Shown here piece by piece: positions 32,804-52,827 of a DNA stretch of 64,000 bases. Made by a program: the position numbers and the translations under genes. The stretch lies in contig OY762721.1 in the NCBI GenBank assembly GCA_963666345.1, positions 2,112,001 to 2,176,000 on the forward strand. The letters run 5' to 3'. The notes below the pieces were generated by a model. It had not been told where the DNA came from. It worked only from the letters and a program-made list of their open reading frames with translations, and ran no database searches. Numbering within the stretch: position 1 is the first letter of the stretch; every line of letters starts with the position of its first letter. The stretch is from Desulfatiglandales bacterium (lineage in GTDB: Bacteria; Desulfobacterota; DSM-4660; Desulfatiglandales; Desulfatiglandaceae).

Positions 32804-34150
32804 TCAGGCTGAAAACTCCTTCAGAAACTTGGGAAGCAGAGAGGCGTCCCTTGGCCCGATAATGATCTCCCAGTCGGGCAGTTCTTCCTCCATCTCACCA
32901 CTTATGGAGGCGGCGTACCCAGGGATGATTACCTTCCTGTGAGATATCTTATCAGCTATCCCGCTCTTTTTGACGAACATGCCTACGGCATCCCCGGAGA
33001 ATTTCCCCGCCGCCCAGGCGGTCATAACTGAAAGGCCCTCTGTGTCCATTATAAGAAGCCAGCTTGGAACCCTGCTTCCTTCCACTTCACCGCTTACTAT
33101 AAAATATGTAAGAGAGAAATTGGTAGTTACAATAACGGGAGATTTCTCATCGGGCGTTCCAATTTCATATATCCCCTCAGTAACGGTCATAGGCCTTTGA
33201 GGGTCAGTGAAAATGTTGAGCCTCTCCAGCAGGACCGGAAAGAGATTCTCTCCCTTGAAATCCGACATTATTATAATGCCTGCATACTTGGCCACCAACA
33301 TTGAGGCGATGACGGTCTCCATGTCCAGGTTGTCCGCCATTTCACAGGGAAAGGTGATCGTCGGAAACCCGAGAGAACGGTTTCCGTCCTTAAGGGGGGC
33401 CCTTCTTAGGGCCACCTGATCCTCAAATAACTTCTTCGGCTCTCTTGATCCGGTATCGAGAACAAGATCTTTCAACCCCATGCCGGTCAGCTTGTCGCTG
33501 AGTTCTATTATTTCAGCCACACTCTCGGCTTTGACAGCCAGCGGCAGGTCGGTTTCCTTTGCAAGCGCCCCCATGTCATCGGCGTTTTCCTTGGTAGCCG
33601 CGTAAAGTAAAGGCCTTTTAAAGGCACACCCCTTTAACGCCTCCTTGAGCACCTCCACCTTATCGCTCATTAGCACAAGGCCGAATTCACTCTCTTCTGC
33701 GATCTTCTTTGCGGCAGCGGCAAAGGCCTCCCCGTCTCCTGTCACATCCTTTAAGGCCACCAGTTCAGGTCTCAGATTGACTCCCACCCTTTCGTACTGA
33801 AAGGCATTCCACTCCTTGAGCTTTCTGTCAAGGGCATCAGGGTCGATGTCGGAGCCCACCATGGCACCGATGCCTGTGGGATTGTAAAATGTCTTCTCGT
33901 GCCTGTACATGACGGTTTCCCCGCCAACCTTGAATGCCCTCGGTCCGGCACCGATTGCAACCGGCCTTATGGGAGGAGCCGAGGCCTCTGCAAGTTTTTC
34001 TCTTGCATCGTCTGATACGTAAGGGCATGCGTCCAGCTCCGCCTTTCCGGAAGCAAGGTTCATCGCAAAGGCCAGGCAGGTAGGGACACCACATTCGCCG
34101 CAGTTTGTCTTGGGCAACATCTTAAATATTTGAATTCCAGTAAGTCCCAT
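32804..34150 (-). CDS. acsC: corrinoid Fe-S protein large subunit
   Basis: LPKTNCGECGVPTCLAFA, IFTDPQRP, TTNFSLTYF, TAWAAGKF. Confidence 0.95.
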   Translation of the reverse strand: MGLTGIQIFKMLPKTNCGECGVPTCLAFAMNLASGKAELDACPYVSDDAREKLAEASAPPIRPVAIGAGPRAFKVGGETVMYRHEKTFYNPTGIGAMVGSDIDPDALDRKLKEWNAFQYERVGVNLRPELVALKDVTGDGEAFAAAAKKIAEESEFGLVLMSDKVEVLKEALKGCAFKRPLLYAATKENADDMGALAKETDLPLAVKAESVAEIIELSDKLTGMGLKDLVLDTGSREPKKLFEDQVALRRAPLKDGNRSLGFPTITFPCEMADNLDMETVIASMLVAKYAGIIIMSDFKGENLFPVLLERLNIFTDPQRPMTVTEGIYEIGTPDEKSPVIVTTNFSLTYFIVSGEVEGSRVPSWLLIMDTEGLSVMTAWAAGKFSGDAVGMFVKKSGIADKISHRKVIIPGYAASISGEMEEELPDWEIIIGPRDASLLPKFLKEFSA

Positions 34151-38574: not shown

Positions 38575-40161
38575 TCAGGCTCTCTTGTGTATACGATTGA
38601 GATCTTGAGTCAATCTCTCCACAAGACCTAGTTGTACCCCTGCAGGGGTCTTTTTTATATCAGATTTCCCGGCAGCTTCTCTTTCGGCCTCAAGTTTCTC
38701 TCGTTCAATGCTTCTCTTAAGTCTGAGTGCCTGTAAATCCTCAAGTTCTTTTGCCTTTGCTTCTGCCTTGGCCTCTTCCGCCGCCTTTTTCGCGGCTTCT
38801 TCCTCGGCCTTCGCCCTGGCCTCCTGCTCGGCCTTTTTCGCGGCTTCCGCCTCAGCCTTTGCCCTGGCCTCTTCTGCCGCCTTTTTCGCGGCTTCTTCCT
38901 CGGCCTTCGCCCTGGCCTCCTGCTCGGCCTTTTTATCGGCTTCCACCTCAGCCTTGGGCTTTACCTCTTCTGCCTTTAACTCAGGTTCCGGTTTTAACTC
39001 TTTTTCAGGTTCTTTCTTAGGCTCTGCTTTCTTCTTAGGCTCGGCCTTTACTTCCTTTTTCTCTGCCTTTGGAGCCGCCTTTTTTTCAGCCTTTGCCTCC
39101 TTTTTGGCCTCTTCAAACTCAAGCACAGGCTCAGGCGAGACAGCCAGAAGGTCTATTTCCACTTGCTCCATGTTCTTTGAAATGCCGGCAACGCCGGTGG
39201 CCATTCCCCCGTTTATCATCAGTTCGATGAACGAACGCGTCAGCCTGACCGTTTCAGGATGTCTCAAAATGACTACGTCTGATCCACCAAGAAGATATGC
39301 CGTCGCTGCCGTCGCCTCCATAAGTATTGGGCGTCTTTCGGCATCCCCGAGCGTGGGGGCGTCCTGTTCGGACTGACCGGCTTCTTTGCACTTCCAAACC
39401 TCGTTTCCTACATTATTTATCATAGGTATCTGGAGTTTATCGTCTTCCTGAGTCAAAGCGGCCATTCTGATACGTTCCATTACCGAGTAGCTGTATTCCA
39501 TTCCGTATCCGAGGCCACCCGTGGTAGGATCTATGAGGATTTTCTCCTGCTTTACACCTAGATTTCCGAGAAGTATATTCAACTGTTTGGCTAGATTCAC
39601 GTCTATGGGGGAGCTTGCCACAATAACATGCCCGTAACCAAGTGCACTAGCCCCTATCCCCTTGTGATTGGCTTCCTCTACCGGTCCTAAACCGACATTC
39701 ATTCCCTCACACAATTCAGAAATCTTCTTTAGGACATCTTCATCTTTCTGATTATTTGCGGTTCCCCATACCACCAGGGGTACGTCAACGGCGTCTGCAA
39801 CCTCTTTTGCCGTTTTCGCCGCCTCCTCCGCACTTTTATCCATACCGTTCGGATCCGTACCCTTCAACTGCAGAACTATAAGATCCGCGCCATATTCCTC
39901 CACACACTTTTTCGCCCATTCTGAGGGGGAGGAAATAACATCCTTAAACGGCTCTATGGCAGCTTGAGGCCATTCCTGTGAAGGATCATAGTCCCAAATC
40001 TCCATGGCTATTTTAGGCGGATTTGGTGAAGACCCCTCAAAAAGATGAAACGCATAGGAGTCTGATCCTCCGACCGTAACCGCGGCACTTCCGCTTCCGA
40101 CCGTAGTAGTCCCTATTTTTCCTGAATAGGGTTGTTTCGGGATTTCAAAGGCCAATTTCAT
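38575..40161 (-). CDS. acsD: corrinoid Fe-S protein small subunit with long Ala/Glu/Lys-rich C-terminal extension
   Basis: FHLFEG, SPIDVNLAKQLN, DPTTGGLGYGMEYSYSVMERIR, LRHP. Confidence 0.92.
   Translation of the reverse strand: MKLAFEIPKQPYSGKIGTTTVGSGSAAVTVGGSDSYAFHLFEGSSPNPPKIAMEIWDYDPSQEWPQAAIEPFKDVISSPSEWAKKCVEEYGADLIVLQLKGTDPNGMDKSAEEAAKTAKEVADAVDVPLVVWGTANNQKDEDVLKKISELCEGMNVGLGPVEEANHKGIGASALGYGHVIVASSPIDVNLAKQLNILLGNLGVKQEKILIDPTTGGLGYGMEYSYSVMERIRMAALTQEDDKLQIPMINNVGNEVWKCKEAGQSEQDAPTLGDAERRPILMEATAATAYLLGGSDVVILRHPETVRLTRSFIELMINGGMATGVAGISKNMEQVEIDLLAVSPEPVLEFEEAKKEAKAEKKAAPKAEKKEVKAEPKKKAEPKKEPEKELKPEPELKAEEVKPKAEVEADKKAEQEARAKAEEEAAKKAAEEARAKAEAEAAKKAEQEARAKAEEEAAKKAAEEAKAEAKAKELEDLQALRLKRSIEREKLEAEREAAGKSDIKKTPAGVQLGLVERLTQDLNRIHKRA
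38765..38945. repeat. coding tandem repeat (48-nt units, 96-nt higher-order period)
   Basis: 38780-38838 is identical to 38876-38934; encodes KKAEQEARAKAEEEAA / KKAAEEARAKAEAEAA. Confidence 0.9.
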
Positions 40162-40847
40162 TACCTCCTTTTTATGAATTTAACCGTGAGATTGAAAAAG
40201 ATTTTCCTGTCGGTTCTCAAAATTTTAGAATACATAAACCGGCGTACTTCAAAAAAACAGGTTTTAATAAAAACCCCGCCCTCTTCTCTTTCAAACACGC
40301 AAAGACTCCGAGTTCAACCGGAAAAGACTTTAGAGGTTATCCTTGAACTTCACTTTTAAAGATATTCGATATCAGCAGCCGGCTACCGGCAAAAGAGATA
40401 AAGACTTCTTGCTCTGAAACCTTAAGAAGACGACCACCGCATCCAAAACTCTTCCTTTTTCGGATGGACGCTGCTTAAAATATGATTCAAAAGATCATAT
40501 CAAGGTAAAGGATTCCTTAAAAACAGGGATCTAAAAAGCTTATATAAAGACAGACGCACGACTGTTTATCAACTTAAAAATAAATAAAATATAGGAAACG
40601 GTATTATTTGATTTGCTAAAAAGAGGAAAGATCGGTTTAAGAGATTTTATTGCGAAGACCATAAGATTTAAACCTTTTAGCACTTATACCTCCTATCGTG
40701 GGTAGCCCCTCGATCGGGGTAACTGGTTTTAATATGTTCACTGCATCCATCTCCCTCGCTCTCGACAAAATTCTGAAAGGAGTTTCAGGAGCTCTCTAAG
40801 GTAGACTTAAAAATGATAAACTAAATGGCCGCCTTTTTCCGTCAGGT

Positions 40848-40877
40848 AACATAAAAAAAAGGGCAAATTATTGTCAA
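40848..40877 (-). promoter_or_regulatory. putative sigma70 promoter of the acs operon
   Basis: Minus strand TTGACA-18 bp-TATGTT. Confidence 0.45.
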
Positions 40878-40917
40878 GTAAATTCTAAAGTAATTTCAGG
40901 CAGTTTAAATTAGTTTA

Positions 40918-40964
40918 TTCCTATATATTGTATTAAATACTATTTTATGTACAAGATATAGATA
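40918..40964. promoter_or_regulatory. tandem NrdR-box-like sites
   Basis: Cores CTATATATTG (40921-40930) and CAAGATATAG (40952-40961), 31 bp apart. Confidence 0.5.
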
Positions 40965-41714
40965 TTAACGTCCAAGTATACCACGAAAAATAGAGTTCGC
41001 GGCAACAACCGCTGTGCTTTTTTCTCCCAACTGAGAGGTAGGTTTTCCCTCGAGATCATAATCGAAAACTACCGGGTCCTCAGGAATAATTCCCATCAAC
41101 TCTAAATTATATTTTTTTACCGCCTCTTCTATACGTGCCCTCTCCCCATCTTTTACCCTGTTTACGATCAAGGACTTACGTATGATATTAAGCTTCAGCT
41201 CCTCGGTCAACTCAACAATACGAGCCGCCGCCTGGATTCCCCTGATTGATGAGTCGGACACCACAATCAGATCATCGATATTGTCAGTCGTTAATCTACT
41301 GATATGTTCCATTCCCGCCTCATTATCCGTTACTACCATCTCATAATTCTTGATTAATTTCTCCAGATACATAGTAAGTAATGAATTTGCGGCACAATAG
41401 CAACCGGCGCCCTCCGGCCTTCCCATGACGATCAGGTCAAAACCGCTCGATTCGATCACCGCCTCCTGTAATTTCATTTCCATAAACACGTCTTTAGTCA
41501 TTCCGCTGGAAACACCCTTCTTCATCTCCTCCCTGGCATCGCCCAAGGTTTCACTGATCTCCAGGCCCAGCACCTCGTTAAGATTTGAATTTGCATCCGC
41601 ATCAACTGCCAAAACGGGTGTTCTACCTTCAGAAACCAGATACCTTATCAAAAAACCGGCCACAGTTGTTTTACCCGTTCCCCCCTTGCCGGCCAAGGCT
41701 ATAGAATAGCTCAT
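40965..41714 (-). CDS. cooC: CooC/AcsF nickel-insertion ATPase
   Basis: GKGGTGKTT, DADANSNL, GRPEGAGCYC, DNEAGMEHISR. Confidence 0.92.
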   Translation of the reverse strand: MSYSIALAGKGGTGKTTVAGFLIRYLVSEGRTPVLAVDADANSNLNEVLGLEISETLGDAREEMKKGVSSGMTKDVFMEMKLQEAVIESSGFDLIVMGRPEGAGCYCAANSLLTMYLEKLIKNYEMVVTDNEAGMEHISRLTTDNIDDLIVVSDSSIRGIQAAARIVELTEELKLNIIRKSLIVNRVKDGERARIEEAVKKYNLELMGIIPEDPVVFDYDLEGKPTSQLGEKSTAVVAANSIFRGILGR

Positions 41715-41817
41715 TTTCTCCTCCTGAACATATAGATTTTGGTTGCTATTTTTAAAGAATTTTTCTAGAATTTAAAGAACTTAAAACATTTCAGGGCTTA
41801 ACATATACACAACAATT

Positions 41818-43119
41818 ATGCCAACAAAGAATGATACATGGAAGATCATAACTAAACAGTTAAAGCGAGAGATTCCTCAATCGGAATTCAACACCTGGTT
41901 TTCCAACACAAGCATAAAAGAACTGGACACAAGCCTGGTTGTAATAGAAGTCCCGAATAAATTTGTCGCCAGATGGCTTAACGACCATTACCTTATTAAA
42001 ATAAGGACATGCTTTAAGGACTACCTAAAATATCCGCCTGAAATAAATTTTTGTTATGAGGGTCAAGAAAAATCTCCCGCACCCGGATCGGGCGGTAAAG
42101 ACGACAGGACCTTTTCCCATCTTGTTAATCCCAACATGCGTTTTGACAATTTTATTGTCTCAAACAGCAACAGATTTGCCTACTTTTCAGCCATGGAAGT
42201 AGTAAAAAATCCGGCAACTCTCTATAATCCATTATATGTTTTCAGTAAATTGAGTTTAGGTAAAACCCATTTACTAAATGCGGTTGTGAACCATTTGGCT
42301 GAAATAGATCCTTTTAAAAAGGTGAAATACGTTTCTTTCGAAAGATATTATACGGACCTTTCAATAGCAAAAAAAAATAACGCCCTGGACGAATTCAGGC
42401 GGGGATACTTTGACCTTGATTTTTTTCTTATCGACGATATAGACCACATAAGCGGTAGGGATAAATCCCAAGAAGAGCTGATAAACCTTTTCAATTATTT
42501 TTACAAGCTTAATAAACAGATTATCATAAGCGGGAAGACCTCTCCCGGACAAATAGTAAATCTCATGCCCCATTTCAGATCAAGACTGGAATGGGGTCTT
42601 CTTACTGAGATAGAAATACCGGATCTTGAAATGAAAACAGAATTTTTGAGGCAGAAAATGAAGGATGAGGACTTATACCTGCCGGAAGACGTTATTTTTT
42701 TTCTGTCAAACAGCACAAACGAGCTGAAGGGTATTAGTAATTACATCGTAACTCTAAAGACCTACGCCTCGCTCTACCAACATGAGATAGATATATCAAC
42801 CGTTAAATCAATTATAAAAAACAAACCCCCAAACAGGATCACCATCAAAGATATCCAAAAGGCCACTGCCGAATATTTTAATATCTCGCTGAGTGATCTT
42901 CTATCAGATAAAAAAAATAGGAAATTTTCGTATCCGAGACAGATTGCCGTCTACCTGTCGAGAAAACTAACTAAACTTTCTTATAAAGGTATAGGCCGAT
43001 CCTTTGGCAATAAGGATCATTCAACCATAATTTATGCTGTAAACCGGATAGATTCATCAAAAAACAACAACCAAAGTATTTTAAATGACATAAATAGGAT
43101 ACAAAACTTTTTCTCGTAG
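41818..43119 (+). CDS. dnaA: DnaA paralog 1 (dnaN-linked; degenerate AAA+ motifs)
   Basis: FNTWF, VPNKF, FDNFIV..SNRFA, YNPLY, LGKTHLL, LIDDI, RSRLEWGL, PRQIAVYL, DHSTIIYA. Confidence 0.9.
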   Translation: MPTKNDTWKIITKQLKREIPQSEFNTWFSNTSIKELDTSLVVIEVPNKFVARWLNDHYLIKIRTCFKDYLKYPPEINFCYEGQEKSPAPGSGGKDDRTFSHLVNPNMRFDNFIVSNSNRFAYFSAMEVVKNPATLYNPLYVFSKLSLGKTHLLNAVVNHLAEIDPFKKVKYVSFERYYTDLSIAKKNNALDEFRRGYFDLDFFLIDDIDHISGRDKSQEELINLFNYFYKLNKQIIISGKTSPGQIVNLMPHFRSRLEWGLLTEIEIPDLEMKTEFLRQKMKDEDLYLPEDVIFFLSNSTNELKGISNYIVTLKTYASLYQHEIDISTVKSIIKNKPPNRITIKDIQKATAEYFNISLSDLLSDKKNRKFSYPRQIAVYLSRKLTKLSYKGIGRSFGNKDHSTIIYAVNRIDSSKNNNQSILNDINRIQNFFS

Positions 43120-43249
43120 TTAACTCCCATCACTGAGCATGCCGAAGGGTGGGACTGAAAAGAACAAAGGAACTCAAGTAAAGACAATGGATCCCGCAGA
43201 TATTGGATGAAAGGAGAATTTCGGTCTTGAACCGGGCTGACCAAAATTT

Positions 43250-43475
43250 TATTAGGACAGATGTGGAATTTTTTTTAATAACTTTTTTATTAATGATCAA
43301 AGAACGGTAAATTGGAAAGTTATTCCACTTCAGTGTTTGAATATTCAAAACCAACCGGGAATTCAATTAATAACTCTTTTAGTATTTACAACAAAATACC
43401 CGGGTAATATACAAATCAACACAGACTTTTATTATTATTATATTTATAAAAGATAAAATAATATTAAACAGATGT
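43250..43475. other. probable oriC (dnaA-dnaN intergenic region)
   Basis: Degenerate boxes (TGTGGAATT 43262-43270, TATTCCACT 43321-43329, TCAACACAG about 43416), then (TTA)n trio-like tract and AT-rich DUE about 43427-43468; canonical position. Confidence 0.6.
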
Positions 43476-43503
43476 TAGAAAACAGATTGGAGCGGAGGCA
43501 AAA

Positions 43504-44619
43504 ATGGAAATAAAAATTGATAGAGAAATCTTTTTAAAAAGTATCTCCAGATTTCAAAGTATAATAGAGAAAAGAAGTAACATGCCTATTCTTTCAACTA
43601 TCCTTCTGACTGCAACTGATTCTGTTGTGCGTATTTCCGCAACTGATCTTGAAATCGGATTTCAGCAGATACTTGAAGCTGAAATTATTGGTGAAGGCAG
43701 TATAACGGTATCAGGCAGGAAGCTTTTCGAAATTCTGAAAGAAAGCAGGGCGAAAATATTTCATATAAAAGAAAAAGAAAACAACTGGGTTTTTCTTTCC
43801 GATGACGTTGCACAATTTAATCTGTCCTGCCTTCCTGCAGACGAATACCCTACCTTTGTTGAACCGATGGATGTAAATATGGTTGAAATAGAAGGAAATA
43901 TCCTCAGCGAAATGATCAATAAAACAATATATGCCGTGACAATGGAGGATGCAGGATTTAAGCTTTCGGGAATATTTACTGAAAAGACTGAATTTGAAGG
44001 GAATTCTTTTTTAAGGATGGTTGCAACCGACGGTCACAGGTTATCTTTGATTGATAAAACATTTTCTAATATTGATAAACTGGAATTAGGATCAGGCGTT
44101 GTTATTCCTAAGAAGGGAATGTCGGAAATTAATAAACTTGCCTCAGACGGCGGCACTGTTATGCTAGGTTTCAAGGATAAAAACTGTGTTGTTAAAAAAG
44201 ATAATACCCTCCTGATAATTAGGCTGCTTGAAACAAAATTTCCGGATTATCATGCCGTAATACCGAAAGATTCTAAATTCAAGATAGATGTAGACAGGGT
44301 ACTTATAAACGATGCCATGAGAAAAATGCTTATACTTAGCAATGAGCGGTATCGGGCGGTAAAAATTATATTGGATAAGGATCTAATGGAGTTGTTTTCA
44401 ACAAATCCTGATCTGGGAGAGGCTCATGAAAGCATCCAGGTAAAGTATAACGATGAACGAATGGAAATAGGTTTCAATCCCAGATATTTTATCGACACTC
44501 TCCAGGCTATGGAAAGTGATCTGATAAGTTTGAGCTTTTTAGACAGTCTCAAACCTTGCGTGATAAGAGGTCAAGTAGATGAAGGTTTTGTGGGGCTTAT
44601 GATGCCTATGAGGTTATAG
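43504..44619 (+). CDS. dnaN: DNA polymerase III beta clamp
   Basis: MPILS, ATDLEI, VATDGHRL, FPDY, IGFNPRY, MMPMRL. Confidence 0.96.
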   Translation: MEIKIDREIFLKSISRFQSIIEKRSNMPILSTILLTATDSVVRISATDLEIGFQQILEAEIIGEGSITVSGRKLFEILKESRAKIFHIKEKENNWVFLSDDVAQFNLSCLPADEYPTFVEPMDVNMVEIEGNILSEMINKTIYAVTMEDAGFKLSGIFTEKTEFEGNSFLRMVATDGHRLSLIDKTFSNIDKLELGSGVVIPKKGMSEINKLASDGGTVMLGFKDKNCVVKKDNTLLIIRLLETKFPDYHAVIPKDSKFKIDVDRVLINDAMRKMLILSNERYRAVKIILDKDLMELFSTNPDLGEAHESIQVKYNDERMEIGFNPRYFIDTLQAMESDLISLSFLDSLKPCVIRGQVDEGFVGLMMPMRL

Positions 44620-47082
<2,463 letters not shown>

Positions 47083-47112
47083 AAAAACAAGAAATTGGTC
47101 TGGAGAATTTTG

Positions 47113-49533
47113 ATGATTAGCGATTTTAAAATTGATTCCGTAAATATAGAAGATGAAATGAAGAAGTCCTATCTTGAATACTCAATGAGTGTCATTGTAG
47201 GAAGAGCACTGCCCGATGTAAGAGACGGTCTGAAGCCTGTTCATAGAAGAGTCTTATATGGAATGCATGAGTTGAAAAATTTTTATAACAGGCCTTTCAA
47301 GAAGTCTGCAAGGGTGGTGGGTGACGTTATAGGTAAATATCATCCTCATGGAGATGCGGCTGTTTATGACACCATAGCCAGAATGGCACAGGATTTCTCT
47401 ATGAGATATACCATCGTGGACGGTCAGGGGAACTTCGGATCCGTAGATGGAGACCCCCCTGCTGCTATGCGTTATACCGAAGTAAGAATGACTAAGCTGG
47501 CTCAGGAATTTTTGAGTGACATAGAAAAGGAAACCGTAGACTTCAGGCCGAACTATGATGAATCTCTAAGTGAACCGGTTATTCTACCGACCAGGGTACC
47601 AAACCTGCTTGTGAACGGCTCTTCCGGAATAGCCGTCGGAATGGCTACGAATATTCCGCCTCATAATCTTGGGGAAATTTGCCGGGCCGTTATCAAGATG
47701 ATAGATGATCCGGATGTAACTTTAAAGGAATTGATGGGAATGGTGCCGGGGCCCGATTTTCCTACGGCAGGTTTCATATTGGGGAAAAGAGGGATACAGG
47801 AAGCGTATAAAACGGGAAGAGGTATAATAAAAATAAGGGCCCGAGCATTTGTTGAAAAGTTAGCTCATAACAAGGAGAGAATTGTTGTATCGGAGATCCC
47901 CTACCAGGTTAACAAGGCAAAACTTCTTGAAAAGATAGCCGAACTTGTAAGGGATAAGAAAATTGAAGGAATTTCAGATATCAGGGATGAATCCGACCGA
48001 GACGGAATGAGAATTGTTGTAGATGTGAAGCGTGAAGGAAAGGCCCTTGTGATTCTAAACAGACTCTATAAGTACACGCAGATGGAGACATCTCTGGGAA
48101 TTATTCTGCTGGCCATTGCCAACAACAGACCTGAGGTTTTGACGCTTAAAAAAATAATCAAATATTTCATAAGCCACAGGCGTGAGATAATAATTCGGAG
48201 AACAATTTATGATTTGAAAAAGGCCGAAGAGCGCGCGCATATACTGGAAGGGCTTAAAAAGGCTTTAGATTTTCTCGATGATATAATTGAACTAATTCGA
48301 TCTTCTACAGATCCAGGAGAAGCAAAGGCAAGACTCATCAGGGAATTTGAATTTTCCGAAATACAGGCGCAGGCGATACTTGACATGCGTCTTCAGCGAT
48401 TAACCGGACTGGAAAGGGAAAAGATAAATGCCGAGTACCAGGATCTCATAAAAAGCATCTCAAAATTAAAGGCTATCTTGGGTAGTCAGGCTATGGTTTC
48501 GGAGATCATAAAGGGCGAAATGAAGGAAATTGAATCAAAACATGGAAATGAGAGAAGGACAGAAATACTTGAGGATGCTGATGAATTAGAATTAGAGGAT
48601 CTTATCGCCAATGAGGATATGGTGGTTACAATAAGCCACGAAGGATATATCAAACGAAATCCGATAAGCCTTTATCGTGCACAGAGAAGAGGAGGTAAGG
48701 GATTAACCGGGGTAAAGACCAAGGCCGAAGATTTCGTGGAACTGCTGTTTGTGGCCTCCTCCCATGATTATCTTATGTTTTTCACAAATAAGGGAAGGGT
48801 GTACTGGAAAAAGGTCCATGAAGTACCGGAGGGCAGTCGGATGGCCCGTGGAAAGGCCATTGTGAATCTTCTTGATCTCCAGAAGGGAGAAAAGGTCGCA
48901 ACGACGCTTGCCGTGAAGAACTTCGAGGAAGGAAAATACGTGGTAATGGCCACAAAGAACGGGATTGTAAAGAAAACTGAACTGAAATCCTATAGTCATC
49001 CCAGGATCACCGGGATTTTAGGAATAAAGATACGAGAAGATGATGAACTTATTGCCGTTCGTGTTACAAGCGGGGAACAGGATATTTTTCTGACGACGCA
49101 AATGGGTAAATCGCTTAGATTCAATGAATCACAGCTTCGAAGTATGGGCCGGGTCGCCTCCGGAAACATAGGGATAAGACTCGGAAAAAGGGATGCGGTG
49201 GTCGGAATGGAAGTCCTTGAGGAGGGAGCTACCATCCTTACTGTAACGGAAAACGGTTTTGGAAAGAGAACTAAGACCGAGGAATATAGGTGCCAGGCAA
49301 GGGGTGGAAAGGGAATATTTACAATTAAGACCAGCCAAAGAAATGGACTGGTAGTATCCTCATACCGGGTAACAGATCAAGACGAATTAATGATAATAAC
49401 AGGTCATGGAAAGATTATTCGCTTGAGGGTGGGGGATATATCGATAATTGGAAGAAATACGCAGGGAGTTACGCTTATCAACCTGGAGGAGGGAGAAAAG
49501 GTTGTGGGTGTGGCAAAGCTGATGGATGATTAG
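47113..49533 (+). CDS. gyrA: DNA gyrase subunit A
   Basis: [33 protein letters not shown] GyrA box. Confidence 0.97.
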
Positions 49534-50929: not shown

Positions 50930-52276
50930 TCAATTTCTGGAATTATGAAGCCTTTTACTTAAAAACTGAACCTGCCTTCTTGTCTTCTCATCTTTTTTCA
51001 TATTAGCTTCGATTAGTTCTGAAGCGTATAACACAGTGGAATGACTGCGATTAATAGTTGCGCCTATTTCTTCAAGGGTCTCGTCCGTATACCTTCTGGA
51101 TAGGTAGGCACAGATATTTCTCGGTAATACGTATATCTTTTTGCGGGATTTGGAGCTGACCATTTCAGGGTCAATGTTGTAGTATTTTGAAACCAGCTGT
51201 TTGACATCCTGGCTGGATATAGAGGCCTCTGAAGTTACCAGGCAGTCTACGACTTCCTTGGCAAGGTCGAGATCTATTTTTACATTAAGAAGGGCGGATT
51301 TGGCACTGAGGGAATTAAGGGCACTTTCCATTTGGCGGACATCCCTTGTAAGTCTGCCGGCAATGAAGTGGATTATCTCGTCGGCGAGATTCAGGTTCTT
51401 TTCAAAGGCCTTTTCAGATAATATCTTTACCCTTGTTTCATAATCGGGGTTATCTATGGTGCTGACCAGGCCGCATGTAAGCCTTGATGAGAGCTCTTTT
51501 GACATGCGGGGGATATCCTTTGGGGGAAGAGAACTGGTGAAGATTAATTTTTTATTGTCATTGCAAAGGGCATCAAGGGTATATCCCAGTTCCACCTGAG
51601 TTTTTTCTTTTCCGCTCAGAAAATGGATCTCTTCCAAAAGCAGTACATCACAGGAACGCCGATACCTGTTTTTGAATTCATCGATGCGGTTGTTTCTGAT
51701 AGAAGAAATCATTTCGTTGGTGAAATCCTCTGCAGTTATGTAGAAAACCTTGGCCTTTGGGTTGATGTGCATGATTTTGTTACCCACGGCCTGAGAAAGA
51801 TGGGTCTTCCCCAGTCCGGTTTTGGCCAGCATTAGCAGGGTATTGTAATGCCGGGATTGGCTGCGGGCAAGCTCCTGGGAGGCTGAATAGGCGAATTCAT
51901 TTGACGGTCCGACTATAAATCGGTCAAAGGTGAAGCCCTTGTTGAAGAATTTGAAGCTGGAGCCTGAAGTCTTAAAATTGGGGAGAGTAAGTTGCTTTGG
52001 GCCTTTGGAGTCGGAAGGGTTGGGATTTGATTTGATTTTACGATCTACATCGAAGCACAGATCCAAATGTCGATTGGTTGTGGAATTTAATTTATCCAGG
52101 ATAAGTTCATAATAATTCTGCTTGACCCAGTTGCAGGAAAATTTATTCGGAAATCCAAGAGTTAATGTATTGCCGTCATTAGATACAAAAGATATCGGTC
52201 GTATCCAGAGTGAGAAGGTGTTTTTCGGGATTTCATTGCTAAGCTGGTTCTTTATCTCCTCCCAACAGACCTTCAT
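50930..52276 (-). CDS. dnaA: DnaA paralog 2 (with QLTLP clamp-binding-like motif)
   Basis: FSLWI, FPNKF, FTFDRFIVGPSNEFA, TGLGKTHL, SGKEKTQ, SSRL..GL, DVRQMES, RSHSTVLYA. Confidence 0.9.
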   Translation of the reverse strand: MKVCWEEIKNQLSNEIPKNTFSLWIRPISFVSNDGNTLTLGFPNKFSCNWVKQNYYELILDKLNSTTNRHLDLCFDVDRKIKSNPNPSDSKGPKQLTLPNFKTSGSSFKFFNKGFTFDRFIVGPSNEFAYSASQELARSQSRHYNTLLMLAKTGLGKTHLSQAVGNKIMHINPKAKVFYITAEDFTNEMISSIRNNRIDEFKNRYRRSCDVLLLEEIHFLSGKEKTQVELGYTLDALCNDNKKLIFTSSLPPKDIPRMSKELSSRLTCGLVSTIDNPDYETRVKILSEKAFEKNLNLADEIIHFIAGRLTRDVRQMESALNSLSAKSALLNVKIDLDLAKEVVDCLVTSEASISSQDVKQLVSKYYNIDPEMVSSKSRKKIYVLPRNICAYLSRRYTDETLEEIGATINRSHSTVLYASELIEANMKKDEKTRRQVQFLSKRLHNSRN

Positions 52277-52827
52277 CTATTTCTCCCGGTTTTTAACAGA
52301 ATTAACGTTTATGTTGAAAAGTGAATTGAAATGAATCAAACAGGATGTTAATCGTATTTATACGAATGGGTGTTTAGATGTCAAAGCTCGTTGATGAGAG
52401 GCAAAAGTTATGTGAGATACTCTTTTTGACATAAGGTAACGTATTCGGCTCACAAGGGAAATCGGCAGTGTCGGTGTAAGTCACCGAGAAGGTGACGTTT
52501 TTTAGAATATAAAATTGGACCAAAAAACAATTACTTAAGCAAAAGAGCTGCGTTGTTTAAAAAAATATCCACATTGGAGATCATTAAAATACTACGATTT
52601 ACGCAGTTTTTTAATGATATTCATTTTCTTATAGGGGATATTTTGGATAATAAAATGATAGTGATATATGGTGAAAGTTAGGAAAGAAAATTGCATGAGC
52701 TGTAACTTATTTATATTGCAAGGTAAAAATAGAATAAAAAGAGCCTGCTGCCGGAGGTTAACTCTATTTTAAAAATTATATTAAAAAACAAAGAGGTGCA
52801 TTTTCTGTAAATGGGGGAAAATTGCTG

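Follow-up and report, generated by a model that had tools for sequence, protein, structure and literature searches.

How the switching-off of DnaA is coupled to replication in bacteria without Hda or YabA is open for most phyla. The present analysis addresses a peptide, QLTLPNF, in the linker of a DnaA protein encoded in a 64,000-nucleotide stretch of DNA from a Desulfatiglandales bacterium (in the following referred to as the window), which represents positions 2112001-2176000 of one 4.16-Mb contig. Among the systems available for comparison, YabA bridges DnaA and the beta sliding clamp DnaN in Bacillus subtilis and is thought to titrate DnaA from oriC, and TrfA, which initiates replication of plasmid RK2, has a clamp motif with a positive role, namely in assembling the replisome at the origin. 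The hook of E. coli Hda, 6-QLSLPL-11, has been described to enter the clamp cleft with Leu7, Leu9, Pro10, and Leu11 (PMC5397184). The consensus for Hda-type hooks has been given as QL[SP]LPL, with the Caulobacter HdaA hook reading 4-QFKLPL-9 (PMC3836487), and TrfA bears its own clamp motif, QLSLF, at residues 134-138 (PMC8034659). Domain II of DnaA, which forms the linker ahead of the AAA+ domain, is described in a review (PMC5448010) as variable in model organisms, with scant knowledge of its motifs, and for E. coli it was suggested there to act transiently in DnaB recruitment. In the open-access texts searched, no account of a DnaA linker carrying a clamp hook was found. Based on comparisons of the encoded proteins, we lean towards regarding QLTLPNF as a built-in Hda-type clamp hook that would tie the control of DnaA to loaded clamps.

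A conserved peptide in the DnaA linker

The DnaA protein carrying the peptide (P0001) had been named paralog 2 in a first-pass annotation of the window. Its gene and the features of its product are as follows:

51974..51994, minus strand: QLTLPNF, clamp-binding-like peptide, residues 95-101 of P0001 (from translation, conservation, and rarity)
50930..52276, minus strand: dnaA 'paralog 2', P0001, 448 amino acids, domains I-IV (from the open reading frame (ORF), Pfam, and TIGR00362)
51938..52045, minus strand: linker of domain II, residues 78-113, with predicted disorder (from the AlphaFold2 predicted local distance difference test, pLDDT)
51464..51943, minus strand: AAA+ ATPase domain spanning residues 112-271; Walker A GLGKT, Walker B LLLEE (PF00308, E 3.9e-51)
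51482-51484, minus strand: box VII arginine R265 (codon checked)
51335..51337, minus strand: sensor II arginine R314 within DVRQMES (codon checked), aligned with K304 of paralog 1
51017..51211, minus strand: domain IV DNA-binding helix-turn-helix, residues 356-420 (PF08299, E 6.9e-20)

Translation of the minus-strand bases 51974-51994 yielded QLTLPNF, and the boundaries of the Pfam domains DnaA_N (PF11638, residues 4-62), Bac_DnaA (PF00308, residues 112-271), and Bac_DnaA_C (PF08299, residues 356-420) place the peptide in the domain II linker, with FTFDRF, the start of domain III, following 20 residues after the motif. Both the location of the peptide at residues 95-101 ahead of the AAA+ domain and the retention of domain I and of the DNA-binding domain IV, as proposed in the first-pass annotation, were confirmed by these data. 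In the ortholog alignment, G154, G156, K157, S264, and R265 were invariant and R314 was nearly so, while the Walker B motif was found to be acidic, featuring EE instead of DD. The names of these ATPase motifs are putative assignments, that of sensor II to R314 following from motif position.

The best solved relative of P0001 was B. subtilis DnaA (8BTG; E 3.4e-88, residues 4-442). The AlphaFold2 model of P0001 reached a mean pLDDT of 87, with values <50 at residues 80-94 and 99-107 and ten-residue block means of 37, 49, and 46 over residues 81-110, and it left the linker stretch undocked on any domain. According to this model, the motif is located in a flexible, exposed, and predicted-disordered region, and such an undocked linker of low confidence fits a motif that is read in trans by another protein.

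Since the pattern QLxLPx[FLIMV] is rare among the ORFs of the source genome, QLTLPNF is unlikely to represent a chance occurrence. Three matches, this site among them, were counted in approximately 1.07 million residues, comprising all ORFs of at least 200 amino acids in six frames, so that about 0.001 matches are expected per protein of 448 amino acids. The other two genomic heptapeptides, QLGLPSV and QLNLPDI, reside in a 360-amino-acid ORF at C1:1117980 (residue 109 in that ORF) and in a minus-strand 543-amino-acid ORF ending at C1:1418772 (residue 282), one in each.

Q95 was found to be invariant in the orthologs from 30 genomes of the order (30/30) as well as in the nearest 90% clusters (120/120). 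Within these two sets, L96 was kept by approximately 90%, L98 by 70-93%, and P99 by 80-97% of the members. The motif averaged 2.8-3.2 bits per column, compared to a mean of 1.7 for the other linker columns; QLTLPNF is a conserved island within a variable linker. When the 36 residues ahead of the AAA+ anchor were scored for the loose pattern Q-x-x-[LFIM]-P, the motif was detected in 24 out of the 30 order orthologs, and the remaining six carried the degenerate form Q[LM]x[LFIM] (e.g., QLMLLDV and QMYIDDR). Among 80 named loci, 72 featured the loose pattern, four were degenerate, and four were unscorable; elsewhere in DnaA proteins, the background of this pattern amounted to 0.014 per 36 residues. 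Conservation of a QL(S/T)LP-like motif in the otherwise variable linker, which had been named in advance as a check, was therefore observed in the order genomes and the named loci and, furthermore, in 30 out of 36 rows of the clade described in the next section.

In its general form, the motif reads Q-[LM]-x-[LFI]-P-x-hydrophobic and lies about 20 amino acids ahead of the AAA+ domain. The hydrophobic end at position 7 (F101 in P0001), preceded by N, G, S, or H at position 6, was found in 26 out of the 30 motif-bearing families and in 115 out of 116 motif-bearing close relatives. A hexapeptide type (QLPLPL, QPSLPL, or QPTLPL) occupied the homologous site in 4 of the 30 motif-bearing families. 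Regarding the features of bacterial clamp-binding motifs (pentapeptide QL[SD]LF, hexapeptide QLxLxL), the P0001 peptide possesses Gln at position 1 and a hydrophobic residue at each of positions 2 and 4, and its final hydrophobic residue, F101, is located at position 7 rather than at position 5 or 6. The likeness to the Hda hook had been seen in the first-pass annotation. The peptide resembles QL[SP]LPL (PMC3836487) in that QLTLP fits the first five positions of this hexapeptide, but with N at position 6 and the hydrophobic residue at position 7. As a clamp motif, the heptapeptide would thus be a new variant that is one residue longer.

Distribution of the motif and of Hda

On the DnaA equivalog model TIGR00362, P0001 achieved 421.7 bits (cut-off 343.9) over model positions 1-437, whereas its score on the Hda model TIGR03420 was 88.6 bits, under the cut-off of 194.8. 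Moreover, it is not Hda-sized, having 448 amino acids and domains I and IV, compared to about 230-250 amino acids for the single-domain Hda. Used as a query, P0001 was matched in 40 out of 41 genomes representing its family and order, with no match in G019. P0001-type matches, being 39-63% identical, were listed for 36 genomes; a single such match each was obtained for 13 genomes of families f2-f5, and the type of the second DnaA (paralog 1, P0002) was the only full-length match in G001, G002, G007, and G017. Within these 41 genomes, the P0002 type was confined to f1 and a part of f6. A fifth f1 genome with the paralog-1 type only, G166, was encountered in the phylum sample. All five are multi-contig metagenome-assembled genomes (MAGs), and since the contigs of G002, G007, and G017 stop before the position expected for the P0001-type gene, its absence from these three is uninformative.

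Named relatives of P0001 include NaphS2, Desulfatiglans, and Desulfacyla within the Desulfatiglandales and Desulfoluna, Desulfococcus, Desulfonema, and Desulforapulum within the Desulfobacterales. On the complete chromosome of Desulfoluna limicola, the P0001-type gene occupies bases 13-1347, represents the sole DnaA match, and encodes QLVIPNV at the homologous site; in total, the P0001 type was the sole DnaA found in two Desulfoluna genomes. Because P0001 scores above the DnaA cut-off and its type is the only DnaA found in f2-f5 and in Desulfoluna limicola, 'paralog 2' is the ordinary, vertically inherited DnaA of its lineage, and paralog 1 is the restricted copy. The same results do not support the first-pass proposal of a DnaA/Hda hybrid. 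Furthermore, the occurrence of the P0001 type as sole DnaA in f2-f5 and Desulfoluna indicates that the motif is older than, and independent of, the second DnaA. For an initiator role of P0001 at oriC, this sole occurrence is indirect evidence. In the source genome, the second DnaA is located nearer to the GC-skew minimum than P0001.

To place the motif within the phylum, one DnaA per family was taken from a sample of 201 Thermodesulfobacteriota genomes, many of them fragmented MAGs, giving 60 families plus five of the order; f14, f27, f30, and about 20 families without a match among 150 listed rows were left out. The corresponding tree of 83 rows, obtained by a quick maximum-likelihood search without a mixture model, resolved the DnaA proteins of this single phylum into two starred clades, with a Shimodaira-Hasegawa-like approximate likelihood ratio test (SH-aLRT) value of 99 for the clade containing P0001 (clade B). 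The motif was distributed over the tree as follows:

Clade B: 36 rows, of which 30 with Q-x-x-[LFIM]-P, 3 with Q[LM]x[LFIM] only, 2 with nothing, and 1 unscored
Clade A: 31 rows, 0 with Q-x-x-[LFIM]-P
Paralog 1: 8 rows, 0 with Q-x-x-[LFIM]-P
Distant outgroup: 8 rows, 0 with Q-x-x-[LFIM]-P

As far as these aligned proteins are concerned, the motif marks one large DnaA clade of the Thermodesulfobacteriota. Among the best 150 cluster representatives at 50% identity, it became scarcer with distance, the successive rank bands having it in 17/26, 12/26, 2/26, 0/29, and 1/28 proteins. Named members bearing it include Desulforhopalus of the class Desulfobulbia and one cluster with the label Syntrophaceae. 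In most proteins, Q precedes the AAA+ anchor by 20-21 residues; two families have a spacing of 12-14 residues. These short-spaced families of clade B (L164 of f84 and L169 of f40, with QLILPTY and QPTLPLA) match Hda-like proteins in their spacing.

Hda was not found in the source genome, where the model matched only both DnaA genes and a 247-amino-acid ORF present in 15 copies; likewise, in Desulfoluna limicola the Hda model matched only the P0001-type DnaA, and no Hda was found. The fifteen ORFs, each with 26.6 bits on the DnaA model and scattered over the genome (e.g., C1:1976907, 2457109, and 3921475), presumably represent IS21 IstB helper ATPases, pointing to an expanded insertion sequence. 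In 8 out of the 201 phylum genomes, Hda-like short ORFs of 243-307 amino acids were detected, namely in families f29 (G063, G100, and G191), f63 (G131 and G161), and f57 (G113, G174, and G203), all of which belong to the motif-less clade A. On a phylum profile built from these eight ORFs, the members scored 297-361 bits and the next match in the 201 genomes 163 bits, with the DnaA proteins of the source genome remaining at <121 bits. The Hda-like proteins begin with MIQLILPL, MIQLVMPL, MIQTLLAL, MQLVFDF, or MQQ[IVF]FDF, and once with MQQQILDL (L219), i.e., a peptide resembling a clamp hook precedes, by 11-12 residues, the AAA+ anchor used for DnaA. This distribution fits one hook per system, with Hda or DnaA as its bearer.

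When relatives of the AAA+ part with the size of Hda were sought, DnaA fragments only were obtained (54 matches). In a quick AAA+-only tree, the Hda-like proteins (L217-L224) formed a clade of their own (97), which joined paralog 1 in one starred group of 15 rows (99). Descent of the Hda-like proteins from the motif-bearing clade B had been considered, and this tree did not place them there; no conclusion on Hda descent is drawn, since the Hda-like proteins and paralog 1 are both long branches for which attraction is possible. In addition, DnaA-related ORFs of 342-385 amino acids, scoring approximately 150-157 bits on the Hda-like profile and being neither full DnaA nor Hda-sized, were noticed in f46 (G115:C5:59030-59734, G145:C402, G234:C203, G205:C79, and G080:C29) and f55 (G108:C3), and may constitute a further DnaA-derived family.

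Paralog 1, dnaN and the origin region

The second dnaA gene and its neighbors in the window are the following:

41818..43119, plus strand: dnaA paralog 1, P0002, 433 amino acids, no motif (TIGR00362, 392.2 bits)
43504..44619, plus strand: dnaN, beta sliding clamp, P0003, 371 amino acids, proposed docking partner (TIGR00663, 268.8 bits)
44650..47082: gyrB-like large ORF (read from gene order and sequence)
47095..49533: gyrA-like large ORF (read from gene order and sequence)

In this order, paralog 1 is followed by dnaN, gyrB, gyrA, and later by P0001, the two dnaA genes being 8 kb apart, and the layout is seen again in G015, G018, and G013, on one contig each. P0002 and P0001 are 28% identical. 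In agreement with the first-pass annotation, neither paralog 1 nor any of its 16 orthologs carried the motif (0 of 17 rows), and scoring by pattern gave 0 of 8. In 15 of these 17 rows (loci L230-L245 and P0002), Lys is present instead of the sensor II arginine, and in most of them the first P-loop glycine is changed to S or C; GKT, a Walker B motif with DD, and the arginine of box VII are retained. Judged by the residues at the named ATPase motifs, paralog 1 is the more degenerate copy. The sensor II arginine is needed for hydrolysis of the type known as regulatory inactivation of DnaA (RIDA) in E. coli. Since Lys replaces it, paralog 1 would be a poor RIDA substrate. In Aquifex DnaA, the same arginine touches the gamma-phosphate (PMC5397184).

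On the Hda model TIGR03420, P0002 scored 97.3 bits, which is below the cut-off of 194.8; it outscores P0001 on Hda-type profiles (97.3 vs. 88.6 bits) and reached 120.8 bits on the phylum profile. In the 83-row tree, paralog 1 formed a separate starred clade with a long stem and was joined weakly to clade B (70). Forcing it together with the P0001-type DnaA of the order cost 61 log-likelihood units, giving a marginal p = 0.04 in the approximately unbiased (AU) test for a group defined only once the tree was known.

Regarding the clamp gene, the first-pass annotation had noted that paralog 2 is encoded near dnaN. The gene is indeed present at 43504..44619; however, it adjoins paralog 1, is 6.3 kb away from P0001, and was within 3 kb at none of 80 related loci, so that the proximity is regarded as incidental. 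The dnaN product possesses three clamp domains, its best solved relatives are beta clamps, and TDGHRL (175-180), P247, N325, and MPM (367-369) were invariant in 30 DnaN orthologs. We take these residues to be the ones lining the peptide cleft in the E. coli clamp. Other clamp clients encoded in the source genome are MutS, with QLSLF at residues 824-828 of 865, and a Y-family polymerase ORF, with QLSLF at residues 289-293. These clients, together with an ordinary clamp, indicate that the canonical clamp-motif system is in use in this organism.

The minimum of the cumulative GC skew of the genome was located at window positions 40000-42000, just upstream of P0002. Applying the E. coli consensus DnaA box TTATCCACA with <=1 mismatch, 22 matches were obtained vs. 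14.7 expected, and no E. coli-type DnaA-box cluster was recognized at the GC-skew minimum or in the intergenic regions near either dnaA; with this E. coli consensus, the AT-rich spacers (32% GC) at 43120-43503 and 52277-52821 contained no cluster either. Near-consensus boxes were seen at 52565 and 52642, upstream of P0001. On this basis, oriC is placed no closer than the GC-skew minimum. Elsewhere in the window, a minus-strand ORF of 448 amino acids (32804-34150) with a Cys-rich N-terminus presumably resembles a corrinoid/CO-dehydrogenase-acetyl-CoA-synthase subunit of the Wood-Ljungdahl pathway, as assessed from its sequence by eye.

A candidate clamp hook and its known counterparts

The interpretation of the linker peptide as a clamp hook draws on its conservation and clade specificity, its likeness to the Hda hook, its placement and predicted disorder, the distribution of Hda, and the presence of an ordinary clamp with further clients. 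Taken from sequence data, this evidence suggests that the Hda-less clade may switch DnaA off by direct contact with the clamp. Once replication begins and clamps are loaded, the linker peptide would dock in the hydrophobic cleft of DnaN, which would tether DnaA to the loaded clamps, away from oriC. The two clefts per clamp dimer could bring two DnaA AAA+ domains together, whereupon the box VII arginine R265 of one DnaA would promote hydrolysis of the ATP bound by the other. The outcome would be a RIDA-like, replication-coupled negative feedback in bacteria for which the searches gave no separate Hda. In the docked state, DnaA could be controlled by such DnaA-on-DnaA arginine-finger hydrolysis or by titration off oriC as with YabA. 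By analogy to TrfA of RK2 (PMC8034659), the hook may also have a positive role, in which the clamp is brought to the origin.

A more far-reaching version of this proposal, which is tentative and in its entirety rather doubtful, envisages an Hda-free RIDA, in which loaded clamps would capture DnaA, and the two DnaA molecules per dimer would hydrolyse each other's ATP by means of their arginine fingers. The hooks of Hda and of the DnaA linker would then stem from one ancestral arrangement with a clamp hook directly preceding a DnaA-type AAA+ domain, and in genomes with a second, hook-less DnaA having Lys at sensor II, such as the source genome, one copy would be clamp-controlled, whereas the hook-less copy would escape. 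The named members of the clade to which this applies are Desulfobacteria, Desulfobulbia, and one labelled Syntrophaceae.

Several observations weigh against a clamp hook. The usual heptapeptide exceeds the described penta- and hexapeptide clamp motifs by one residue, and we know of no solved example of a heptapeptide clamp motif. Some families have P, Q, A, or W at position 2, and some members of clade B (6 of 36 rows) have lost P5 or the entire motif, which is therefore not indispensable. In addition, most clade A families show neither the motif nor an Hda-like gene, the Hda-like proteins were not grouped with clade B in the quick AAA+-only tree, and the complementarity of Hda and motif, being a single phylogenetic contrast, is weak evidence.

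The deviating length and the sometimes non-hydrophobic position 2 are in line with docking of the peptide to another partner, the likeness to Hda then being convergent or superficial. Such a partner could be the replicative helicase or the protein that loads it, a regulator of initiation specific to the lineage, an adaptor for a protease, or a second DnaA, by way of its domain I. A part in E. coli DnaB recruitment suggested for domain II (PMC5448010) points in the same direction. However, the positions Q1, L2, L4, and P5 are those of QL[SP]LPL, the exact hexapeptide occurs at the homologous place in some families, and the placement just ahead of the AAA+ domain mirrors that of Hda, making a different partner rather unlikely. 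No alternative reader of such a motif is known. Still less probable is that P0001, after the arrival of paralog 1 beside dnaN, became a clamp-docked regulator which inactivates the origin-linked paralog 1 in trans by its arginine finger, and does so in the two-DnaA family only. Such a function would agree with two full-length dnaA genes 8 kb apart around the GC-skew minimum, with a motif on P0001 alone and a retained box VII arginine, and with the gene layout recurring in G015, G018, and G013. It is, however, difficult to reconcile with the P0001 type being the sole DnaA found in the 13 genomes of f2-f5 and the two Desulfoluna genomes, with a protein that keeps domains I and IV and passes the DnaA but not the Hda cut-off, and with Lys at sensor II in 15 of the 17 paralog 1 rows.

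A peptide without any binding role, kept for structure or folding at the junction of domains II and III or by ancestry alone, is considered very improbable. All motif-bearing proteins fall into one clade, so that a single historical origin accounts for the distribution, and some members have lost the motif. On the other hand, the flanking linker columns contain 1-2 bits and the motif columns 3-4.3 bits in proteins that are 35-45% identical overall, and AlphaFold2 gives the stretch no packed structure.

An Hda-like hook within DnaA would provide a simple candidate answer to the coupling problem for many sulfate reducers and syntrophs. If it binds, the clamp consensus would be widened to the heptapeptide QLxLPxΦ, domain II, which is usually seen as a passive spacer, would gain a regulatory role, and a view would open on how Hda could arise from a DnaA. 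If the clamp is not bound, the motif still points to a site for some partner that is strongly conserved in an essential protein.

Compared to the known systems, the arrangement proposed here shares with YabA of Bacillus subtilis the coupling of DnaA to the clamp, by which replication restrains initiation (PMC4705661). However, in the case of YabA the coupling is made by a small protein of its own, which has no relation to DnaA, whereas the link proposed here is a peptide of DnaA itself. TrfA resembles P0001 in being a replication initiator that bears a clamp-binding motif, but it belongs to the plasmid Rep proteins, has no relation to DnaA, and carries a canonical pentapeptide as its motif. 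With the canonical DnaA proteins of B. subtilis (8BTG), Aquifex (1L8Q and 2HCB), and E. coli, P0001 has in common that it is a four-domain protein. The likeness to Hda comprises a Q-L-x-L-P peptide that is placed, within a flexible segment, immediately N-terminal to the DnaA-type AAA+ domain bearing a box VII arginine, the best-kept positions of the P0001 motif being those of the Hda-type consensus and corresponding to the Hda residues that enter the clamp cleft (PMC5397184 and PMC3836487). P0001 fails the Hda cut-off. In contrast to Hda, the hook of P0001 is embedded in a full-length DnaA, is separated from the AAA+ anchor by about 20 instead of 11-12 residues, and usually features an extra residue before the last hydrophobic position.

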